From Escherichia coli (GTDB lineage Bacteria; Pseudomonadota; Gammaproteobacteria; Enterobacterales; Enterobacteriaceae), in the NCBI RefSeq assembly GCF_046105845.1, contig NZ_CP151004.1: a stretch of 64,000 nucleotides of DNA; one strand, 5' to 3'. The translations under genes were made by a program, and so were the position numbers. Each line of letters begins with the position of its first letter. Within the stretch, counting starts at the first letter, position 1. The notes below the pieces were generated by a model, which saw nothing but the letters and a program-made list of their open reading frames with translations, ran no database searches and was not told where the DNA came from. Of this stretch, positions 16,815-52,458 are shown in pieces.

Positions 16815-19511
16815 TTACTGCCAGCCGTAACGACGGCTATAGAACCCTTTCACCAACTGGGTTAACGTCATATACCCTGCCAGAATCGCAACCAGCCACG
16901 GGAAATAGCTTAACGGCAGCGCCTGCAGCTGCAGATAACTGGCCAGCGGTGAAAACGGCAATGCGATCCCGACAATCATCACGATCACGGTCATGATCAT
17001 TAACGGCCACGATGCACAGCTCTGAATAAACGGTACACGACGGGTGCGGATCATATGCACAATCAGCGTTTGCGACAGTAAGCCCACCACAAACCAGCCC
17101 GACTGGAACAGCGTTTGCGTTTCCGGCGTGTTGGCATGGAATACCCACCACATCAGGCAAAACGTCAGAATATCGAAGATCGAGCTGATCGGTCCGAAGA
17201 AGATCATAAAGCGCCCCAGATCCGCCGGATTCCAACGCTGCGGCTTTTGAATTTGCTCGTCGTCGACGTTATCAAACGGGATCGCCACCTGTGACACATC
17301 GTACAGCAGGTTCTGAATAAGCAAGTGTAACGGCAACATCGGCAGGAAGGGCAAGAAAGCACTCGCCACCAGCACGCTGAACACATTACCGAAGTTAGAG
17401 CTCGCCGTCATTTTGATGTATTTCAGCATGTTGGCGAAAGTGCGACGTCCCTCAATAACCCCCTCTTCCAGCACCATCAGGCTTTTTTCCAGCAGGATGA
17501 TATCAGCCGCTTCACGGGCAATATCTACCGCGCCGTCCACAGAAATGCCGATATCCGCAGCACGTAAGGCGGGCGCATCATTTATACCATCGCCCATAAA
17601 GCCAACCACATGCCCTTCGCGCTTCAGTAAGGTCACAATGCGTTCTTTATGCATCGGCGTCAGGCGAGCAAACAGCGTGGTGCGCTGTGCGAGATTTGCC
17701 AGTTCATCGTCAGATAGCGTTTCAATATCACTACCAATGACCACCTCTCCCGCGTCCAGCCCCACTTCATGGCACACTTTCGCTGCAACTAACTCACTGT
17801 CGCCAGTAAGGATTTTTACGGTAATGCCACTCGCTTTTAATGCCTTCAGTGCCGGAGCAGTTGTCTCTTTTGGCGGATCAAGGAAAGCAATATATCCTTC
17901 GAGGATCAGGTCGGATTCATCCGCTCGCTGGTAATCGCCTTCACGCGCTGGCAGGTATTTCGTCGCCACCGCAACCACGCGCAGCCCCTGACGATTCAGC
18001 GTATCGGTAACCCGCTTAATCTTACGCAGCATGGTGTCATCGAGTGGTACAATCTCGCCATTGTGACGCACCTGCGAACACACATTGAGGATTTCCTGCA
18101 ATGCGCCTTTGCAAACCAGCTGATGGTGTTCGGTATTTTCTGCCACTACCACCGACATCCGGCGACGCTCGAAATCAAACGGAATCTCATCAATTTTTTG
18201 CCAACGGCTGGCCAGCGAGCGCGCTGACTCTTCATCCGTACCTTCGAGCACCGCTGTATCAAGCAGGTTTTTAAGCCCGGTCTGGTAATGACTGTTCAAC
18301 CACGCGCTATGCAGCACGCGTTCGCTGGTTTTACCGGAGATATCGGTATGATTCTCCAGCACAATTTTATCCTGTGTCAGGGTGCCGGTTTTATCAGTGC
18401 ACAGAATATCCATTGCGCCAAAGTTCTGAATGGCATCCAGATGCTTGACGATCACTTTCTGTTTCGACAGCTTTACTGCGCCGCGCGCCAGCGTCGAGGT
18501 AACAATCATCGGCAACATTTCTGGCGTTAAGCCTACCGCGACCGAAAGCGCAAACAGCGCCGCTTCCCACCAGTCGCCTTTGGTGTAACCATTGATTAAC
18601 AGCACCACCGGTGCCATCACCAGCATAAAGCGAATCAGCAGCATACTGACGCGGCTGATCCCTTGCTGAAAGGCATTCGGCTCGCTTTCCTGCTCACTAA
18701 CACGCCCCGCCAGTTGACCAAACCAGGTGTTGGCTCCTGTAGCAATCACCATTGCTTGTGCCGTGCCGCTCACCACGGTGGTGCCCATAAAACACAGGGT
18801 GTCGCACTCCAGTGGATTGCTGTGCTCCGGCTGGCGAGTAGTAGCGGCTTTTTCCACGGGCAGAGACTCACCGGTTAACGACGCCTGAGCGACGAACAGA
18901 TCCCGCGCCTGCAAGATACGTAAATCTGCCGGGATCATATCCCCTGCCGCCAGTTTTATAATATCGCCGGGCACCAGCTGGTCGATCGGGATCTCCAGCC
19001 AGCCATTTTCGCCTTTGTCGTTAATTACGCGCAGCACCGTCGCGGTATTGCTGACCATCGCTTTCAGGGCATCTGCCGCTTTAGTGGAACGTGCTTCCTG
19101 AATAAAGTTCAGCAACGTAGAAATAGCGACCATTAGCGCGATAACGCCCGCGGCAAATAAATCTTCCGTGGCGTAAGAAATAGCGCCGAGAATGGTGAGT
19201 AAAATATTAAAGGGGTTGCGATAGCAGACCCATAAATGTACCCACCACGGCGACGGTTGTTGTGCGGGTAATTTATTATCACCATGTTGTTCGCGGGCAG
19301 ATTCCACTTCCGCCTGATTTAATCCTTCCGGATGGGTGTCGAACGTTTTCCACAATTCTTCTTCGGGCATCACCGCCATTTTCAGGCAATGCGCACTTAA
19401 GGACGGCGGGACCGCCGTATTCACTGTCTGCTGCGCGCCAGGCAATGGATCGCGATGAACCAGACGGGAAGGTAAATGGCGAATGAACCGGGTAAAAATT
19501 TCTTTAAACAT
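16815..19511 (-). CDS. mgtA: Mg2+-importing P-type ATPase MgtA
   Basis: 898-aa ORF with P-type ATPase motifs (DKTGTLT, TGDS, GDGINDAPAL). Confidence 0.97.
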   Translation of the reverse strand: MFKEIFTRFIRHLPSRLVHRDPLPGAQQTVNTAVPPSLSAHCLKMAVMPEEELWKTFDTHPEGLNQAEVESAREQHGDNKLPAQQPSPWWVHLWVCYRNPFNILLTILGAISYATEDLFAAGVIALMVAISTLLNFIQEARSTKAADALKAMVSNTATVLRVINDKGENGWLEIPIDQLVPGDIIKLAAGDMIPADLRILQARDLFVAQASLTGESLPVEKAATTRQPEHSNPLECDTLCFMGTTVVSGTAQAMVIATGANTWFGQLAGRVSEQESEPNAFQQGISRVSMLLIRFMLVMAPVVLLINGYTKGDWWEAALFALSVAVGLTPEMLPMIVTSTLARGAVKLSKQKVIVKHLDAIQNFGAMDILCTDKTGTLTQDKIVLENHTDISGKTSERVLHSAWLNSHYQTGLKNLLDTAVLEGTDEESARSLASRWQKIDEIPFDFERRRMSVVVAENTEHHQLVCKGALQEILNVCSQVRHNGEIVPLDDTMLRKIKRVTDTLNRQGLRVVAVATKYLPAREGDYQRADESDLILEGYIAFLDPPKETTAPALKALKASGITVKILTGDSELVAAKVCHEVGLDAGEVVIGSDIETLSDDELANLAQRTTLFARLTPMHKERIVTLLKREGHVVGFMGDGINDAPALRAADIGISVDGAVDIAREAADIILLEKSLMVLEEGVIEGRRTFANMLKYIKMTASSNFGNVFSVLVASAFLPFLPMLPLHLLIQNLLYDVSQVAIPFDNVDDEQIQKPQRWNPADLGRFMIFFGPISSIFDILTFCLMWWVFHANTPETQTLFQSGWFVVGLLSQTLIVHMIRTRRVPFIQSCASWPLMIMTVIVMIVGIALPFSPLASYLQLQALPLSYFPWLVAILAGYMTLTQLVKGFYSRRYGWQ

Positions 19512-19775
19512 AAGGAGTCCCTCCGTACTGTCTGAAACAGTACAGAAATGTCTTCAGGCGTGGCGAAGCCTTACCTGAAGGTAATAAAGCTGAGCAGGGA
19601 CGTTAAAACGTCACGGCCTTACGCATCCGGTAACGCCGTGAAAAGACGGGCTTACCGGAAAAGTTTTAATCTCCGTCGAGGGAGAGGCGTGGGATCAGGT
19701 TCCATATAACCTCCGGTAAGTGAAAAAAGCGCCGCAAATAATAAGGAGAATCCAATAATATTCGTAGCATCTATG
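19512..19775 (-). promoter_or_regulatory. mgtA 5' leader (Mg2+/proline-responsive regulatory leader containing mgtL)
   Basis: Long untranslated region between the PhoP-box promoter and mgtA ATG, containing the proline-rich mgtL ORF. Confidence 0.6.
19652..19705 (-). CDS. mgtL: mgtA leader peptide MgtL
   Basis: 17-codon [20 protein letters not shown] within the mgtA leader. Confidence 0.75.
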
Positions 19776-19798
19776 GCGATATAATACCTGCTGGCAAC

Positions 19799-19815
19799 TA
19801 AACCAACGATAAACC
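19799..19815 (-). promoter_or_regulatory. PhoP box of the mgtA promoter
   Basis: Minus-strand sequence GGTTTA-tcgtt-GGTTTA: perfect direct hexamer repeat with 5-bp spacer. Confidence 0.65.
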
Positions 19816-19889
19816 AGACTTTACCCATTGCTGAATGCACGGGTAAAGTTAGGCTCAAATAATTAAACAACACGTTACGGGACAACAGG

Positions 19890-20837
19890 ATGCAAAATCG
19901 GCTGACCATCAAAGACATCGCGCGCTTAAGCGGCGTGGGGAAATCTACGGTTTCCCGGGTGCTGAATAACGAAAGCGGCGTGAGCCAGCGCACGCGCGAG
20001 CGTGTTGAAGCAGTGATGAATCAGCATGGATTTTCCCCTTCCCGCTCTGCGCGCGCTATGCGTGGTCAAAGCGATAAAGTGGTCGCCATCATTGTTACCC
20101 GTCTGGATTCGTTGTCAGAAAATCTCGCCGTTCAAACCATGCTGCCAGCGTTCTATGAACAAGGTTACGACCCAATCATGATGGAAAGTCAGTTTTCCCC
20201 GCAATTAGTTGCCGAACATTTGGGGGTGCTGAAACGGCGTAATATCGACGGCGTAGTGCTGTTCGGTTTTACCGGCATAACAGAAGAAATGTTAGCCCAC
20301 TGGCAGTCATCGCTGGTTCTGCTGGCGCGTGACGCAAAAGGCTTTGCTTCGGTCTGTTATGACGACGAAGGGGCAATCAAGATCCTGATGCAACGGCTGT
20401 ATGACCAGGGACATCGTAATATCAGTTATCTCGGCGTGCCGCACAGTGACGTGACGACCGGTAAGCGACGTCACGAAGCCTACCTGGCGTTCTGCAAAGC
20501 GCATAAACTGCATCCCGTTGCCGCCCTGCCAGGCCTTGCTATGAAGCAAGGCTATGAGAACGTAGCAAAAGTGATTACGCCTGAAACTACCGCCTTACTG
20601 TGCGCAACCGACACGCTGGCACTTGGTGCAAGTAAATACCTGCAAGAGCAACGCATCGACACCTTGCAACTGGCGAGCGTCGGTAATACGCCGTTAATGA
20701 AATTCCTCCATCCGGAGATCGTCACCGTAGATCCCGGTTACGCCGAAGCTGGACGCCAGGCGGCCTGCCAGTTGATCGCGCAGGTAACCGGGCGCAGCGA
20801 ACCGCAACAAATCATCATCCCCGCCACCCTGTCCTGA
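19890..20837 (+). CDS. treR: trehalose operon repressor TreR (LacI family)
   Basis: 315-aa ORF with N-terminal LacI-type HTH (LTIKDIARLSGVGKSTVSRVLNN). Confidence 0.95.
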   Translation: MQNRLTIKDIARLSGVGKSTVSRVLNNESGVSQRTRERVEAVMNQHGFSPSRSARAMRGQSDKVVAIIVTRLDSLSENLAVQTMLPAFYEQGYDPIMMESQFSPQLVAEHLGVLKRRNIDGVVLFGFTGITEEMLAHWQSSLVLLARDAKGFASVCYDDEGAIKILMQRLYDQGHRNISYLGVPHSDVTTGKRRHEAYLAFCKAHKLHPVAALPGLAMKQGYENVAKVITPETTALLCATDTLALGASKYLQEQRIDTLQLASVGNTPLMKFLHPEIVTVDPGYAEAGRQAACQLIAQVTGRSEPQQIIIPATLS

Positions 20838-36074: not shown

Positions 36075-36180
36075 TGCGCCAGATAAGACACAACAGCGTC
36101 GCATCAGGCATCTCGCACAACCGCCGGATGCGGCGTGAATGCCTTATCCGGCGGCCCACAAGTCGGCATCAGGCATTGAT
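36075..36180. repeat. REP/BIME cluster between ytfR and ytfQ
   Basis: gccggatgcggcgtgaatgccttatccggc and flanking gcatcaggc motifs. Confidence 0.55.
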
Positions 36181-45599: not shown

Positions 45600-45710
45600 T
45601 GTCTATGCCGGATGCGGCATAAACGCCTTGCCAGGCCTACAAAACCCTCCAAATTCAATATATTGCAGGGACTTCGTAGGCCTGATCGGCATAGCGCATC
45701 AGGCAGTTTT
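45600..45710. repeat. REP/BIME cluster downstream of msrA
   Basis: tgccggatgcggcataaacgccttgccaggcctac and gtaggcctgatcggcatagcgcatcaggca in inverted orientation. Confidence 0.6.
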
Positions 45711-45881
45711 TCATTTATCAACAGTCTGAATTTTAACCCTCTGGCGGCTTTACAGTACCTTACGCTATACTAGCCACTGAAAATGCCGGTTCACTTTCTT
45801 CGAATCGGCTTTCAATGTGTATTTCACACAAATTAATCAACTTCCCCTTCCGAGGATCTGGCCTGAAAGGTCGGATAAGAT

Positions 45882-50325: not shown

Positions 50326-50514
50326 TTCTCCACCTCGTCTCTGTGAGCGGTGTTAACTTATTGTTTTACTTATACCCTATCGTTAATGAATGCGCCAACT
50401 GTGATAGTGTCATCATTTTCAAAGCGTAAAATTGTGGCATTCTTCACTGTTCTATAAGTAAGACGTTTATTCTCCCTTTTCTTTCGTATTCCCGATGATA
50501 AAAGGATGTCCCTG

Positions 50515-52458
50515 ATGATTAAGTTTAGCGCAACGCTCCTGGCCACGCTGATTGCCGCCAGTGTGAATGCAGCGACGGTCGATCTGCGTATCATGGAAAC
50601 CACTGATCTGCATAGCAACATGATGGATTTCGATTATTACAAAGACACCGCCACGGAAAAATTCGGACTGGTACGTACCGCAAGCCTGATTAACGATGCC
50701 CGCAATGAAGTGAAAAACAGCGTACTGGTCGATAACGGCGATTTGATTCAGGGGAGTCCGCTGGCCGATTACATGTCGGCGAAAGGTTTAAAAGCAGGTG
50801 ATATTCACCCGGTCTATAAGGCATTAAATACGCTGGACTATACCGTCGGCACGCTTGGCAACCACGAGTTTAACTACGGTCTGGATTACCTGAAAAATGC
50901 GCTGGCGGGAGCGAAATTCCCTTATGTAAATGCCAACGTCATTGACGCCAGAACCAAACAGCCAATGTTTACACCGTATTTAATTAAAGACACCGAAGTG
51001 GTCGATAAAGACGGAAAAAAACAGACGCTGAAGATTGGCTATATTGGCGTCGTGCCGCCGCAAATCATGGGCTGGGATAAAGCTAATTTATCCGGGAAAG
51101 TGACGGTGAATGATATTACCGAAACCGTGCGCAAATACGTGCCTGAAATGCGCGAGAAAGGTGCCGATGTTGTTGTCGTTCTGGCGCATTCCGGGCTGTC
51201 TGCCGATCCGTATAAAGTGATGGCGGAAAACTCAGTTTATTACCTCAGTGAAATTCCGGGTGTTAACGCCATTATGTTTGGTCATGCTCACGCCGTTTTC
51301 CCGGGTAAAGATTTTGCTGATATCGAAGGGGCTGATATCGCCAAAGGCACGCTGAATGGTGTTCCGGCGGTAATGCCGGGCATGTGGGGCGATCATCTTG
51401 GTGTGGTCGACTTACAACTCAGTAATGACAGCGGTAAATGGCAGGTGACGCAGGCGAAAGCGGAAGCAAGACCGATTTACGACATCGCTAATAAAAAATC
51501 CCTCGCGGCGGAAGACAGCAAGCTGGTAGAAACACTCAAAGCCGATCACGATGCCACACGCCAGTTCGTCAGCAAGCCAATCGGTAAATCCGCCGACAAT
51601 ATGTATAGCTATCTGGCGCTAGTGCAAGACGATCCGACCGTGCAGGTGGTGAACAACGCGCAAAAAGCGTATGTCGAGCATTACATTCAGGGCGATCCGG
51701 ATCTGGCAAAACTGCCGGTGCTTTCAGCTGCCGCACCGTTTAAAGTTGGTGGTCGCAAAAATGACCCGGCAAGCTATGTGGAGGTGGAAAAAGGCCAGTT
51801 GACCTTCCGTAATGCCGCCGATCTTTATCTCTACCCCAATACGCTGATTGTGGTGAAAGCCAGCGGTAAAGAGGTGAAAGAGTGGCTGGAGTGCTCTGCC
51901 GGACAGTTTAACCAGATTGATCCTAACAGCACGAAACCACAGTCACTCATTAACTGGGATGGTTTCCGCACTTATAACTTTGATGTGATTGATGGTGTGA
52001 ATTATCAGATTGATGTTACCCAGCCCGCCCGTTATGACGGCGAGTGCCAGATGATTAATGCCAATGCGGAAAGGATTAAGAACCTGACCTTTAACGGCAA
52101 GCCGATTGATCCGAACGCCATGTTCCTCGTTGCCACCAATAACTATCGCGCTTACGGCGGCAAATTTGCCGGTACGGGCGACAGCCATATCGCTTTTGCT
52201 TCACCGGATGAGAACCGCTCGGTGCTGGCAGCGTGGATTGCTGATGAGTCGAAACGTGCGGGGGAAATTCACCCGGCGGCAGATAACAACTGGCGTTTAG
52301 CACCGATTGCTGGCGATAAGAAACTGGATATCCGTTTCGAAACCTCTCCGTCAGATAAAGCCGCAGCGTTTATTAAAGAGAAAGGGCAATACCCGATGAA
52401 TAAAGTCGCGACCGATGATATCGGGTTTGCGATTTATCAGGTGGATTTGAGTAAGTAA
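50515..52458 (+). CDS. cpdB: 2',3'-cyclic-nucleotide 2'-phosphodiesterase / 3'-nucleotidase CpdB
   Basis: 647-aa form from ATG 50515 ([19 protein letters not shown] signal peptide), calcineurin-like phosphoesterase and 5'-nucleotidase C domains; ATG 50506 is an alternative start. Confidence 0.95.

Follow-up and report, generated by a model that had tools for sequence, protein, structure and literature searches.

The 378 bp that separate treR from mgtA (positions 19512-19889 of the window, by which we mean the whole 64-kb stretch of DNA that was analysed) are very probably the native two-tier mgtA control region of the Escherichia coli chromosome. The mgtA leader region found here is an already known, intact and fully typical copy. 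Its identity is secure, as it rests on four independent lines: a match to the Rfam family RF01056, the RefSeq annotation, the NCBIfam equivalogs of the flanking genes and an arrangement kept in 79 species. The region is a textbook case of layered control, in which a two-component promoter is combined with a leader where transcription elongation is coupled to the translation of a very short ORF. As a discovery it is of little weight, and the comparative work is of modest value: the comparison of 79 species documents quantitatively that every published element is under selection. The residual interest lies only in the terminating mechanism of E. coli and in a little-discussed, covarying hairpin that is predicted to occlude the Shine-Dalgarno sequence of mgtA.

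Identity and conservation of the locus

The mgtA gene lies on the minus strand (16815-19511, ATG at 19511, 898 aa in the ORF list) and its product belongs to the NCBIfam equivalog TIGR01524, the magnesium-translocating P-type ATPase, with a score of 1608.9 bits for a cutoff of 610.75. The divergent treR gene lies on the plus strand (19890-20837, 315 aa in the ORF list) and its product is assigned to the equivalog TIGR02405 with 590.7 bits. Between them, a scan of all 4227 Rfam families across the window placed RF01056 (the magnesium-responsive RNA element) on the minus strand, from 19605 to 19720, with 125.8 bits against a gathering threshold of 40 and an E-value of 5.5e-25. The match is full-length (model positions 1-115) and the 3' end of the element is found 94 nt upstream of mgtA. 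The same family was matched at the same relative position in 18 of 18 sampled genera.

The region is equally ordinary within its own species: the 378-bp intergenic region, with mgtL annotated beneath it, is present in 5425 of 5426 complete E. coli genomes, with a best identity of 99.7%. RefSeq gives the gene order treB, treR, mgtL, mgtA both in K-12 and in the best match, the best E. coli match over 8 kb being 99.2% identical. Compared with K-12, the intergenic region of the window presents four base differences, at 19879, 19847, 19794 and 19526. For the comparison between species, mgtA loci were collected from 80 enterobacterial species; the comparison covers 79 species, which together with the window make 80 sequences. 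In all but one of the 79 (78 species) treR and mgtA are divergent genes, and the length of the intergenic region is similar.

The Rfam scan also returned further matches above threshold in the window, on the minus strand the antisense RNA Ysr276 (1760-1954), naRNA4 (36077-36153), ES239 (50392-50514) and the RpsF leader (63708-63792), and on the plus strand ES036 (45641-45683) and STnc450 (45763-45820). An ORF of 113 aa at 19652-19993, in frame with mgtL, crosses the promoter and the treR start and was set aside as an artefact of ORF calling.

The PhoP box and the mgtA promoter

The PhoP box is a direct repeat, GGTTTA-TCGTT-GGTTTA (GGTTTATCGTTGGTTTA), which occupies the -35 position at 19799-19815. 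A first-pass annotation of this DNA had pointed out this repeat, and we confirmed that it is present, that it is read on the minus strand and that it is unique, since GGTTTATCGTTGGTTTA is the sole exact match in the 64-kb window and none of 100 dinucleotide-preserving shuffles contains the repeat. Compared with the pattern (T/G)GTTTA-N5-(T/G)GTTTA, the box of the window matches at 12 of 12 positions, in direct orientation. When up to one mismatch is tolerated, KGTTTA-N5-KGTTTA occurs three times in the window, where 0.97 occurrences would be expected, and three or more are found in 8 of 100 shuffles; PhoP-box-like sites at 50966 and 57352 were rejected, their frequency being at chance level. 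Among the 80 sequences, the best box upstream of mgtL agrees with the pattern at 12 of 12 positions in 41, at 11 in 18, at 10 in 16 and at 9 in 5.

The -10 hexamer, TATTAT, was read from the sequence at 19781-19786 (minus strand). It is separated from the box end at 19799 by 12 nt, which bears out the -35-like placement that had been proposed for the box, and this geometry (box, 12 nt, TATNAT) is kept in nearly all of the 79 species. The mgtA transcription start is inferred at 19773-19775 (minus strand), 7-8 nt downstream of the -10 hexamer, and the numbering used in PMC11552253 (nt 152-163 corresponding to GUAAGGCCGUGA; C175) maps +1 to position 19773 of the window. In Salmonella, PhoP promoters of architecture I carry a single direct box 12 nt from the -10 and start 7 nt after the -10 (PMC3335776). 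The mgtA promoter of the window presents this geometry, with the box 12 nt upstream of the -10 and overlapping a poor -35. Salmonella enterica mgtA has the same box orientation, the same 12-nt spacing to the -10 and a leader of the class of about 264 nt, the length given for the Salmonella mgtA leader itself being 264 nt (PMC3335776). A generic sigma-70 scan found no -35/-10 consensus promoter in the intergenic region, which is in keeping with an activator-dependent promoter, in which the PhoP box takes the place of the -35. Finally, an identical 19-mer, tGGTTTAtcgttGGTTTAg, is listed for Shigella flexneri as the PhoP site of mgtA, and also as that of treR, in inverse orientation (PMC5775216).

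The leader RNA and the mgtL peptide

The mgtA 5' leader extends over 19512-19775 on the minus strand, that is 262-264 nt depending on the start, which refines the earlier estimate of approximately 260 nt. Its minimum free energy is -87.3 kcal/mol (z = -4.95), and none of 200 shuffles folds as well; in the corresponding fold, the three-way junction of the Rfam model (A) is accompanied by stem-loop B and by two hairpins towards the 3' end. The leader carries mgtL, of 17 codons and a stop (19652-19705, minus strand, ATG at 19705 and TAA at 19654-19652), with the sequence ATG GAA CCT GAT CCC ACG CCT CTC CCT CGA CGG AGA TTA AAA CTT TTC CGG TAA and with a Shine-Dalgarno sequence GGAGG at 19710-19714. 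The proline-rich ORF of 17 codons described in the first-pass annotation stands at 19705-19652, and mgtL is the RefSeq annotation of the homologous place. MgtL contains 4 prolines among its 17 residues, and its gene is embedded in stem-loop A.

All 79 loci with enough upstream sequence contain an ORF that starts with M-D/E-P-D/E-P-T/A-P. Across species, mgtL usually has 16-17 codons and is located 185-218 nt upstream of mgtA in most. That of Salmonella also has 17 codons (MDPEPTPLPRWRIFLFR in locus L019); the Escherichia peptide starts with MEPDP and the Salmonella one with MDPEP.

Around this conserved core, several variations were observed. The segment between the transcription start and stem A lacks conservation: E. 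coli E69 (L004) and E. whittamii (L038) have 10-12 nt fewer there (at about 2230-2290 of these loci), and it is about 30 nt shorter in Kosakonia (the group of L039, L054, L057 and L068), where the distance from mgtL to mgtA is also about 95 nt longer (291-295 nt, vs 194-200). In many species whose mgtL carries CGA-TGG (Arg-Trp), a second short ORF in the +2 frame begins about 29 nt past the mgtL ATG (L006-L020 and others), spanning the switch region of stems A, C and B (e.g., MEKQPFPVSLSFTVLPEQ; MENFPFPVSLPLLSYRFVRQ in Salmonella). This second ORF is absent in the window, where mgtL reads CGA-CGG, and it may well be incidental.

Two mutually exclusive folds

Stem-loop A (19651-19720, minus strand), present in the Rfam alignment and in the minimum free energy fold, is a three-way junction enclosing the mgtL Shine-Dalgarno sequence and most of mgtL. 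Its arms form a perfect inverted repeat of 9 bp, and 96.4% of cells are paired in the alignment of 80 sequences. The helix is near-invariant and so shows no covariation; what speaks for its pairing is conservation, the folding energy and the Rfam model. Stem-loop B (19612-19640, minus strand), which belongs to the "high Mg2+ / OFF" conformer, is given by the fold, by covariation and by RNAalifold: folded alone it reaches -17.2 kcal/mol (z = -3.1), compensatory changes are found at 6 of its 10 pairs, and 98.5% of cells are paired. Stem-loop C (19627-19658, minus strand), the "low Mg2+ / ON" conformer, was detected as an inverted repeat and joins the 3' arm of A to the 5' arm of B. In register, 90.7% of its cells are paired vs 13-48% when the partners are slid, and two of its pairs are compensatory. 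The same control applied to the 5' core of the 80-sequence alignment gave for the A + B structure 96.5% of paired cells vs 39-49% with 3' partners slid. The inverted repeats that make the arms of A, B and C were all found by a repeat finder, and RNAalifold recovers A and B without supplied structures.

When the two conformers are forced on the window sequence, A + B reaches -38.9 to -40.0 kcal/mol and C -38.9 kcal/mol; as they are isoenergetic within about 1 kcal/mol, they present the balance expected of a switch. Folding in the presence of crude ribosome footprints over mgtL codons 3-18 cleanly selected neither C nor B, in an equilibrium model without co-transcriptional order. The alternative stem-loops, whose absence from folding predictions would have counted against the reading of the first-pass annotation, are present, isoenergetic and evolutionarily supported. 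The comparison with the Salmonella leader, which the same annotation had suggested, leads in the same direction: both leaders share helices A, B and C as well as the pair of 3' hairpins, and in a 4-way alignment with a mean column identity of 84% the divergence between Salmonella and the window falls outside the helices. The Salmonella locus L019 scores 119.6 bits with RF01056 and has a divergent treR, as in the window.

Directly 3' of stem B, a small hairpin, GACGU-UUUA-ACGUC (19599-19612, minus strand), presents compensatory changes at 3 of its 5 pairs and is paired in 95.5% of cells. A peculiarity of Escherichia is found at the stem B pair 19633/19617, which is a G.G mismatch (A.G in L003) in this genus and C-G in nearly all others. 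The same G of Escherichia is also mismatched in stem C, and both conformers are in this way weakened together.

Hairpins in front of mgtA

Between the switch and the mgtA start codon, the leader folds into two further hairpins. Hairpin E (19552-19580, minus strand), CUUCAGG..GGC-UUC-GCC..CCUGAAG, is defined by covariation: in the alignment of the last ~100 nt, compensatory changes occur at 5 of its 7 outer pairs and at all 3 inner pairs, and its core is recovered by RNAalifold. Hairpin F (19520-19548, minus strand) is given by the fold, by covariation and by RNAalifold recovery. It reaches -14.6 kcal/mol (z = -4.9) with 8 of 13 pairs compensatory, and the covariation support for it equals that for stem B. 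Its 3' arm runs into the mgtA Shine-Dalgarno sequence (GGAGGG, 19519-19524), and the folding model predicts that hairpin F would occlude it. No discussion of this hairpin was found in the searchable open-access literature, and it seems less discussed than the rest of the leader.

Within E. coli, the pair 19542/19526 of hairpin F is C-G in L003 and L004, U.G in K-12 and U-A in the window. The window allele at 19526 is rare, as only strains AST215 and FCI1 carry it among 5419 complete genomes, and it is energetically neutral, hairpin F having -14.6 kcal/mol with both alleles.

Termination signals within the leader

A terminator scan found no intrinsic terminator in the leader, the only match of the scan being inside treR. 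Stem B is followed by ACGUUUU, with four U only, 3 nt past the stem, and this U-run is not conserved. Further downstream, the stretch at 19576-19610 (minus strand) is C-rich and G-poor (32-36% C vs 8-16% G in 25-nt windows) and is a candidate Rho loading region. For the related corA leader, PMC11552253 places the rut site in the pyrimidine-rich sequences that flank stem B.

Term-seq data for K-12 give two 3' ends, at 4467490 and 4467576, the latter being flagged as Rho-affected with bicyclomycin and labelled riboswitch (PMC7815308 supplement). On the window, the end at 4467490 corresponds to 19646, 5 nt after stem A closes, and that at 4467576 to 19560, which lies within hairpin E, at roughly nt 214-216 of the leader and at -49 relative to mgtA. 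The 3' end at 19560 lies close to the long-lived pause that is reported for Salmonella near position 218.

Proposed mechanism and alternative readings

What this analysis shows is the presence and arrangement of the sequence elements, the alternative helices with their near-equal energies, and the conservation and covariation of these features; the literature supplies the binding of PhoP, the response to Mg2+, the destabilisation of ribosomes and the terminating factor. Put together, they suggest control on two tiers. In the first tier, PhoQ would sense low external Mg2+, and phosphorylated PhoP would bind the repeat that replaces the -35; the bound PhoP would activate transcription, which would begin about 7-8 nt past TATTAT. 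In the second, the leader would fold either as A + B or, exclusively, as C, with mgtL inside A. When cytoplasmic Mg2+ is sufficient, mgtL would be translated to its stop, leading to the B-containing state, and transcription would end short of mgtA. At low Mg2+, or with limiting proline-tRNA, ribosomes would stall at the N-terminal EPDP and the proline codons or drop off there, upon which stem C would form and RNA polymerase would read through into mgtA. Of the two hairpins 3' of the switch, the second would occlude the mgtA Shine-Dalgarno sequence.

Several published results underlie this scheme. A response to cytoplasmic Mg2+ mediated by the leader has been reported for both E. coli and Salmonella (PMC11552253, PMC11282234). 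In the model summarised in PMC11552253, high Mg2+ goes with stem-loops A and B, efficient mgtL translation and repression of mgtA, and low Mg2+ with the formation of stem-loop C. The ribosomes of E. coli dissociate at the EPDP of MgtL when Mg2+ is low, an effect counteracted by EttA, and mutation of Glu2 and Asp4 of MgtL abolishes the expression of an mgtA fusion (PMC11282234). The first-pass annotation had described an attenuation arrangement sensing Mg2+ and proline. The arrangement is indeed a known one, with two qualifications. As the scan found no intrinsic terminator in it, the leader does not qualify as a classical attenuator. In the model now current for E. coli, moreover, ribosomes are destabilised at EPDP in a manner that depends on Mg2+ and is modulated by EttA (PMC11282234, PMC11552253), and proline limitation is not the sole signal.

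Three other readings of the region have to be weighed against this scheme. That the repeat and the short ORF arose by chance, with no regulatory function, is a reading to which we give practically no credit, given the absence of the repeat from all shuffles, the E-value of RF01056 and the box, spacing, ORF and helices kept in 79 species with compensatory substitutions. It is also quite improbable, in our opinion, that the leader is a pure riboswitch, whose RNA would bind Mg2+ directly and switch between C and A + B without mgtL translation, mgtL being secondary. Rfam does class the element as a riboswitch aptamer, according to PMC11552253 the Mg2+-dependent folding of the RNA is enough by itself to modulate, in vitro, the termination by Rho in Salmonella mgtA, and the same paper considers the mode of Mg2+ sensing as incompletely understood; since the conformers are isoenergetic, even a small effect of a ligand could tip the balance. 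Such a reading is difficult to reconcile with the presence of mgtL in 79 of 79 species with an acidic and proline N-terminus that is invariant at the peptide level, with the loss of mgtA fusion expression in the Glu2/Asp4 mutant, and with the action of EttA via mgtL translation (PMC11282234). The preferred reading remains that the two folds are selected by the translation of mgtL.

The third reading concerns the way transcription ends. Rho dependence has been shown for Salmonella and is disputed for E. coli: termination in the Salmonella mgtA leader depends on Rho, PMC11552253 notes that evidence of Rho is lacking for E. coli mgtA, and for E. coli the evidence is conflicting, PMC5499598 standing against PMC7815308. 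Transcription in the E. coli leader might end by other means than Rho, i.e., by pausing and RNase cleavage, by a weak intrinsic signal, or by control through the Shine-Dalgarno hairpin followed by decay. The observation most in line with this comes from ChIP on the rho R66S mutant, in which mgtA has a termination score of 1.0 despite a drop of RNA polymerase occupancy along the gene (PMC5499598); its authors nevertheless allow that R66S may leave the mgtA terminator unaffected. The conserved hairpin occluding the mgtA Shine-Dalgarno sequence and the ACGUUUU after stem B also fit. Against this, the scan accepted no intrinsic terminator, and the U-run that follows stem B lacks conservation. As the 3' end at -49 is Rho-affected after bicyclomycin (PMC7815308 supplement) and a C-rich, G-poor stretch lies downstream of stem B, we consider termination by means other than Rho to be unlikely. 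A related idea, which we put forward very tentatively, is that E and F form a separate control module of mgtA, gating the initiation of translation or, as does stem E of the corA leader, shielding the transcript from Rho right ahead of the coding sequence. If true, such a module could explain the conflicting Rho results in E. coli.

Relation to other leaders

Genes for Mg2+ transporters are likewise under the control of the M-box (ykoK) of Firmicutes, which responds to cytoplasmic Mg2+. Its RNA fold is unrelated to that of the mgtA leader, and the scan of 4227 Rfam families gave no M-box match in the window. Much closer is the layout of the corA leader of E. coli and Salmonella, with the uORF corL in a three-way junction, stem-loops A + B opposed to C, pyrimidine-rich rut flanks and Rho-dependent termination (PMC11552253). 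The likeness is one of published description, and corA differs by its locus and by its constitutive promoter devoid of a PhoP box; corL has a single conserved proline (PMC11552253). The attenuators of trp, his and leu share with mgtA the principle that the efficiency of leader-peptide translation selects the hairpins that decide on read-through. They differ in that the mgtA leader has no intrinsic terminator (GC hairpin and U-run), and in that its signal is the stability of the ribosome at acidic and proline codons together with Mg2+, and not solely the supply of one charged tRNA (PMC11282234).

The treR side of the intergenic region

Only 74 bp separate the PhoP box from the treR ATG. Reportedly, a study of mgtA and treR by Yamamoto et al. 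in 2002 dealt with the sharing of the region with the treR promoter. In the first-pass annotation, the 378-bp region was also said to hold the divergent treR promoter. Its length and the divergence of treR are as described; the promoter itself is a candidate. Conservation across genera between the PhoP box and treR delimits blocks at 19816-19856 (plus strand), the best-conserved columns being the 15 nt that abut the box (CAATGGGYAAAGTCT / CAATGGGTAAAGTCT, on the mgtA strand) and the GAGCCTAA block. These blocks probably are, judging from the sequence, the core-promoter elements of treR, placed back-to-back with the PhoP box. A candidate -35 (TTTACC or TTACCC, 19820-19826) is followed after 17-18 nt by a candidate -10 (TAAAGT, 19844-19849). 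The pattern TTKMCY-16..19-TAnnnT fits 30 of 75 loci only, with no single treR promoter register, and a generic promoter scan found no treR promoter.

Just upstream of the PhoP box, the window presents a perfect 9-bp inverted repeat, with its arms at 19818-19826 and 19841-19849. The repeat is imperfect in K-12, which has at 19847 C and not A on the plus strand (G and not T on the mgtA strand), and it is lost outside Escherichia, Citrobacter and Salmonella; on these grounds we rejected it as an operator for a transcription factor or as an RNA hairpin. It is better read as the overlapping candidate -35 and -10 elements of treR.
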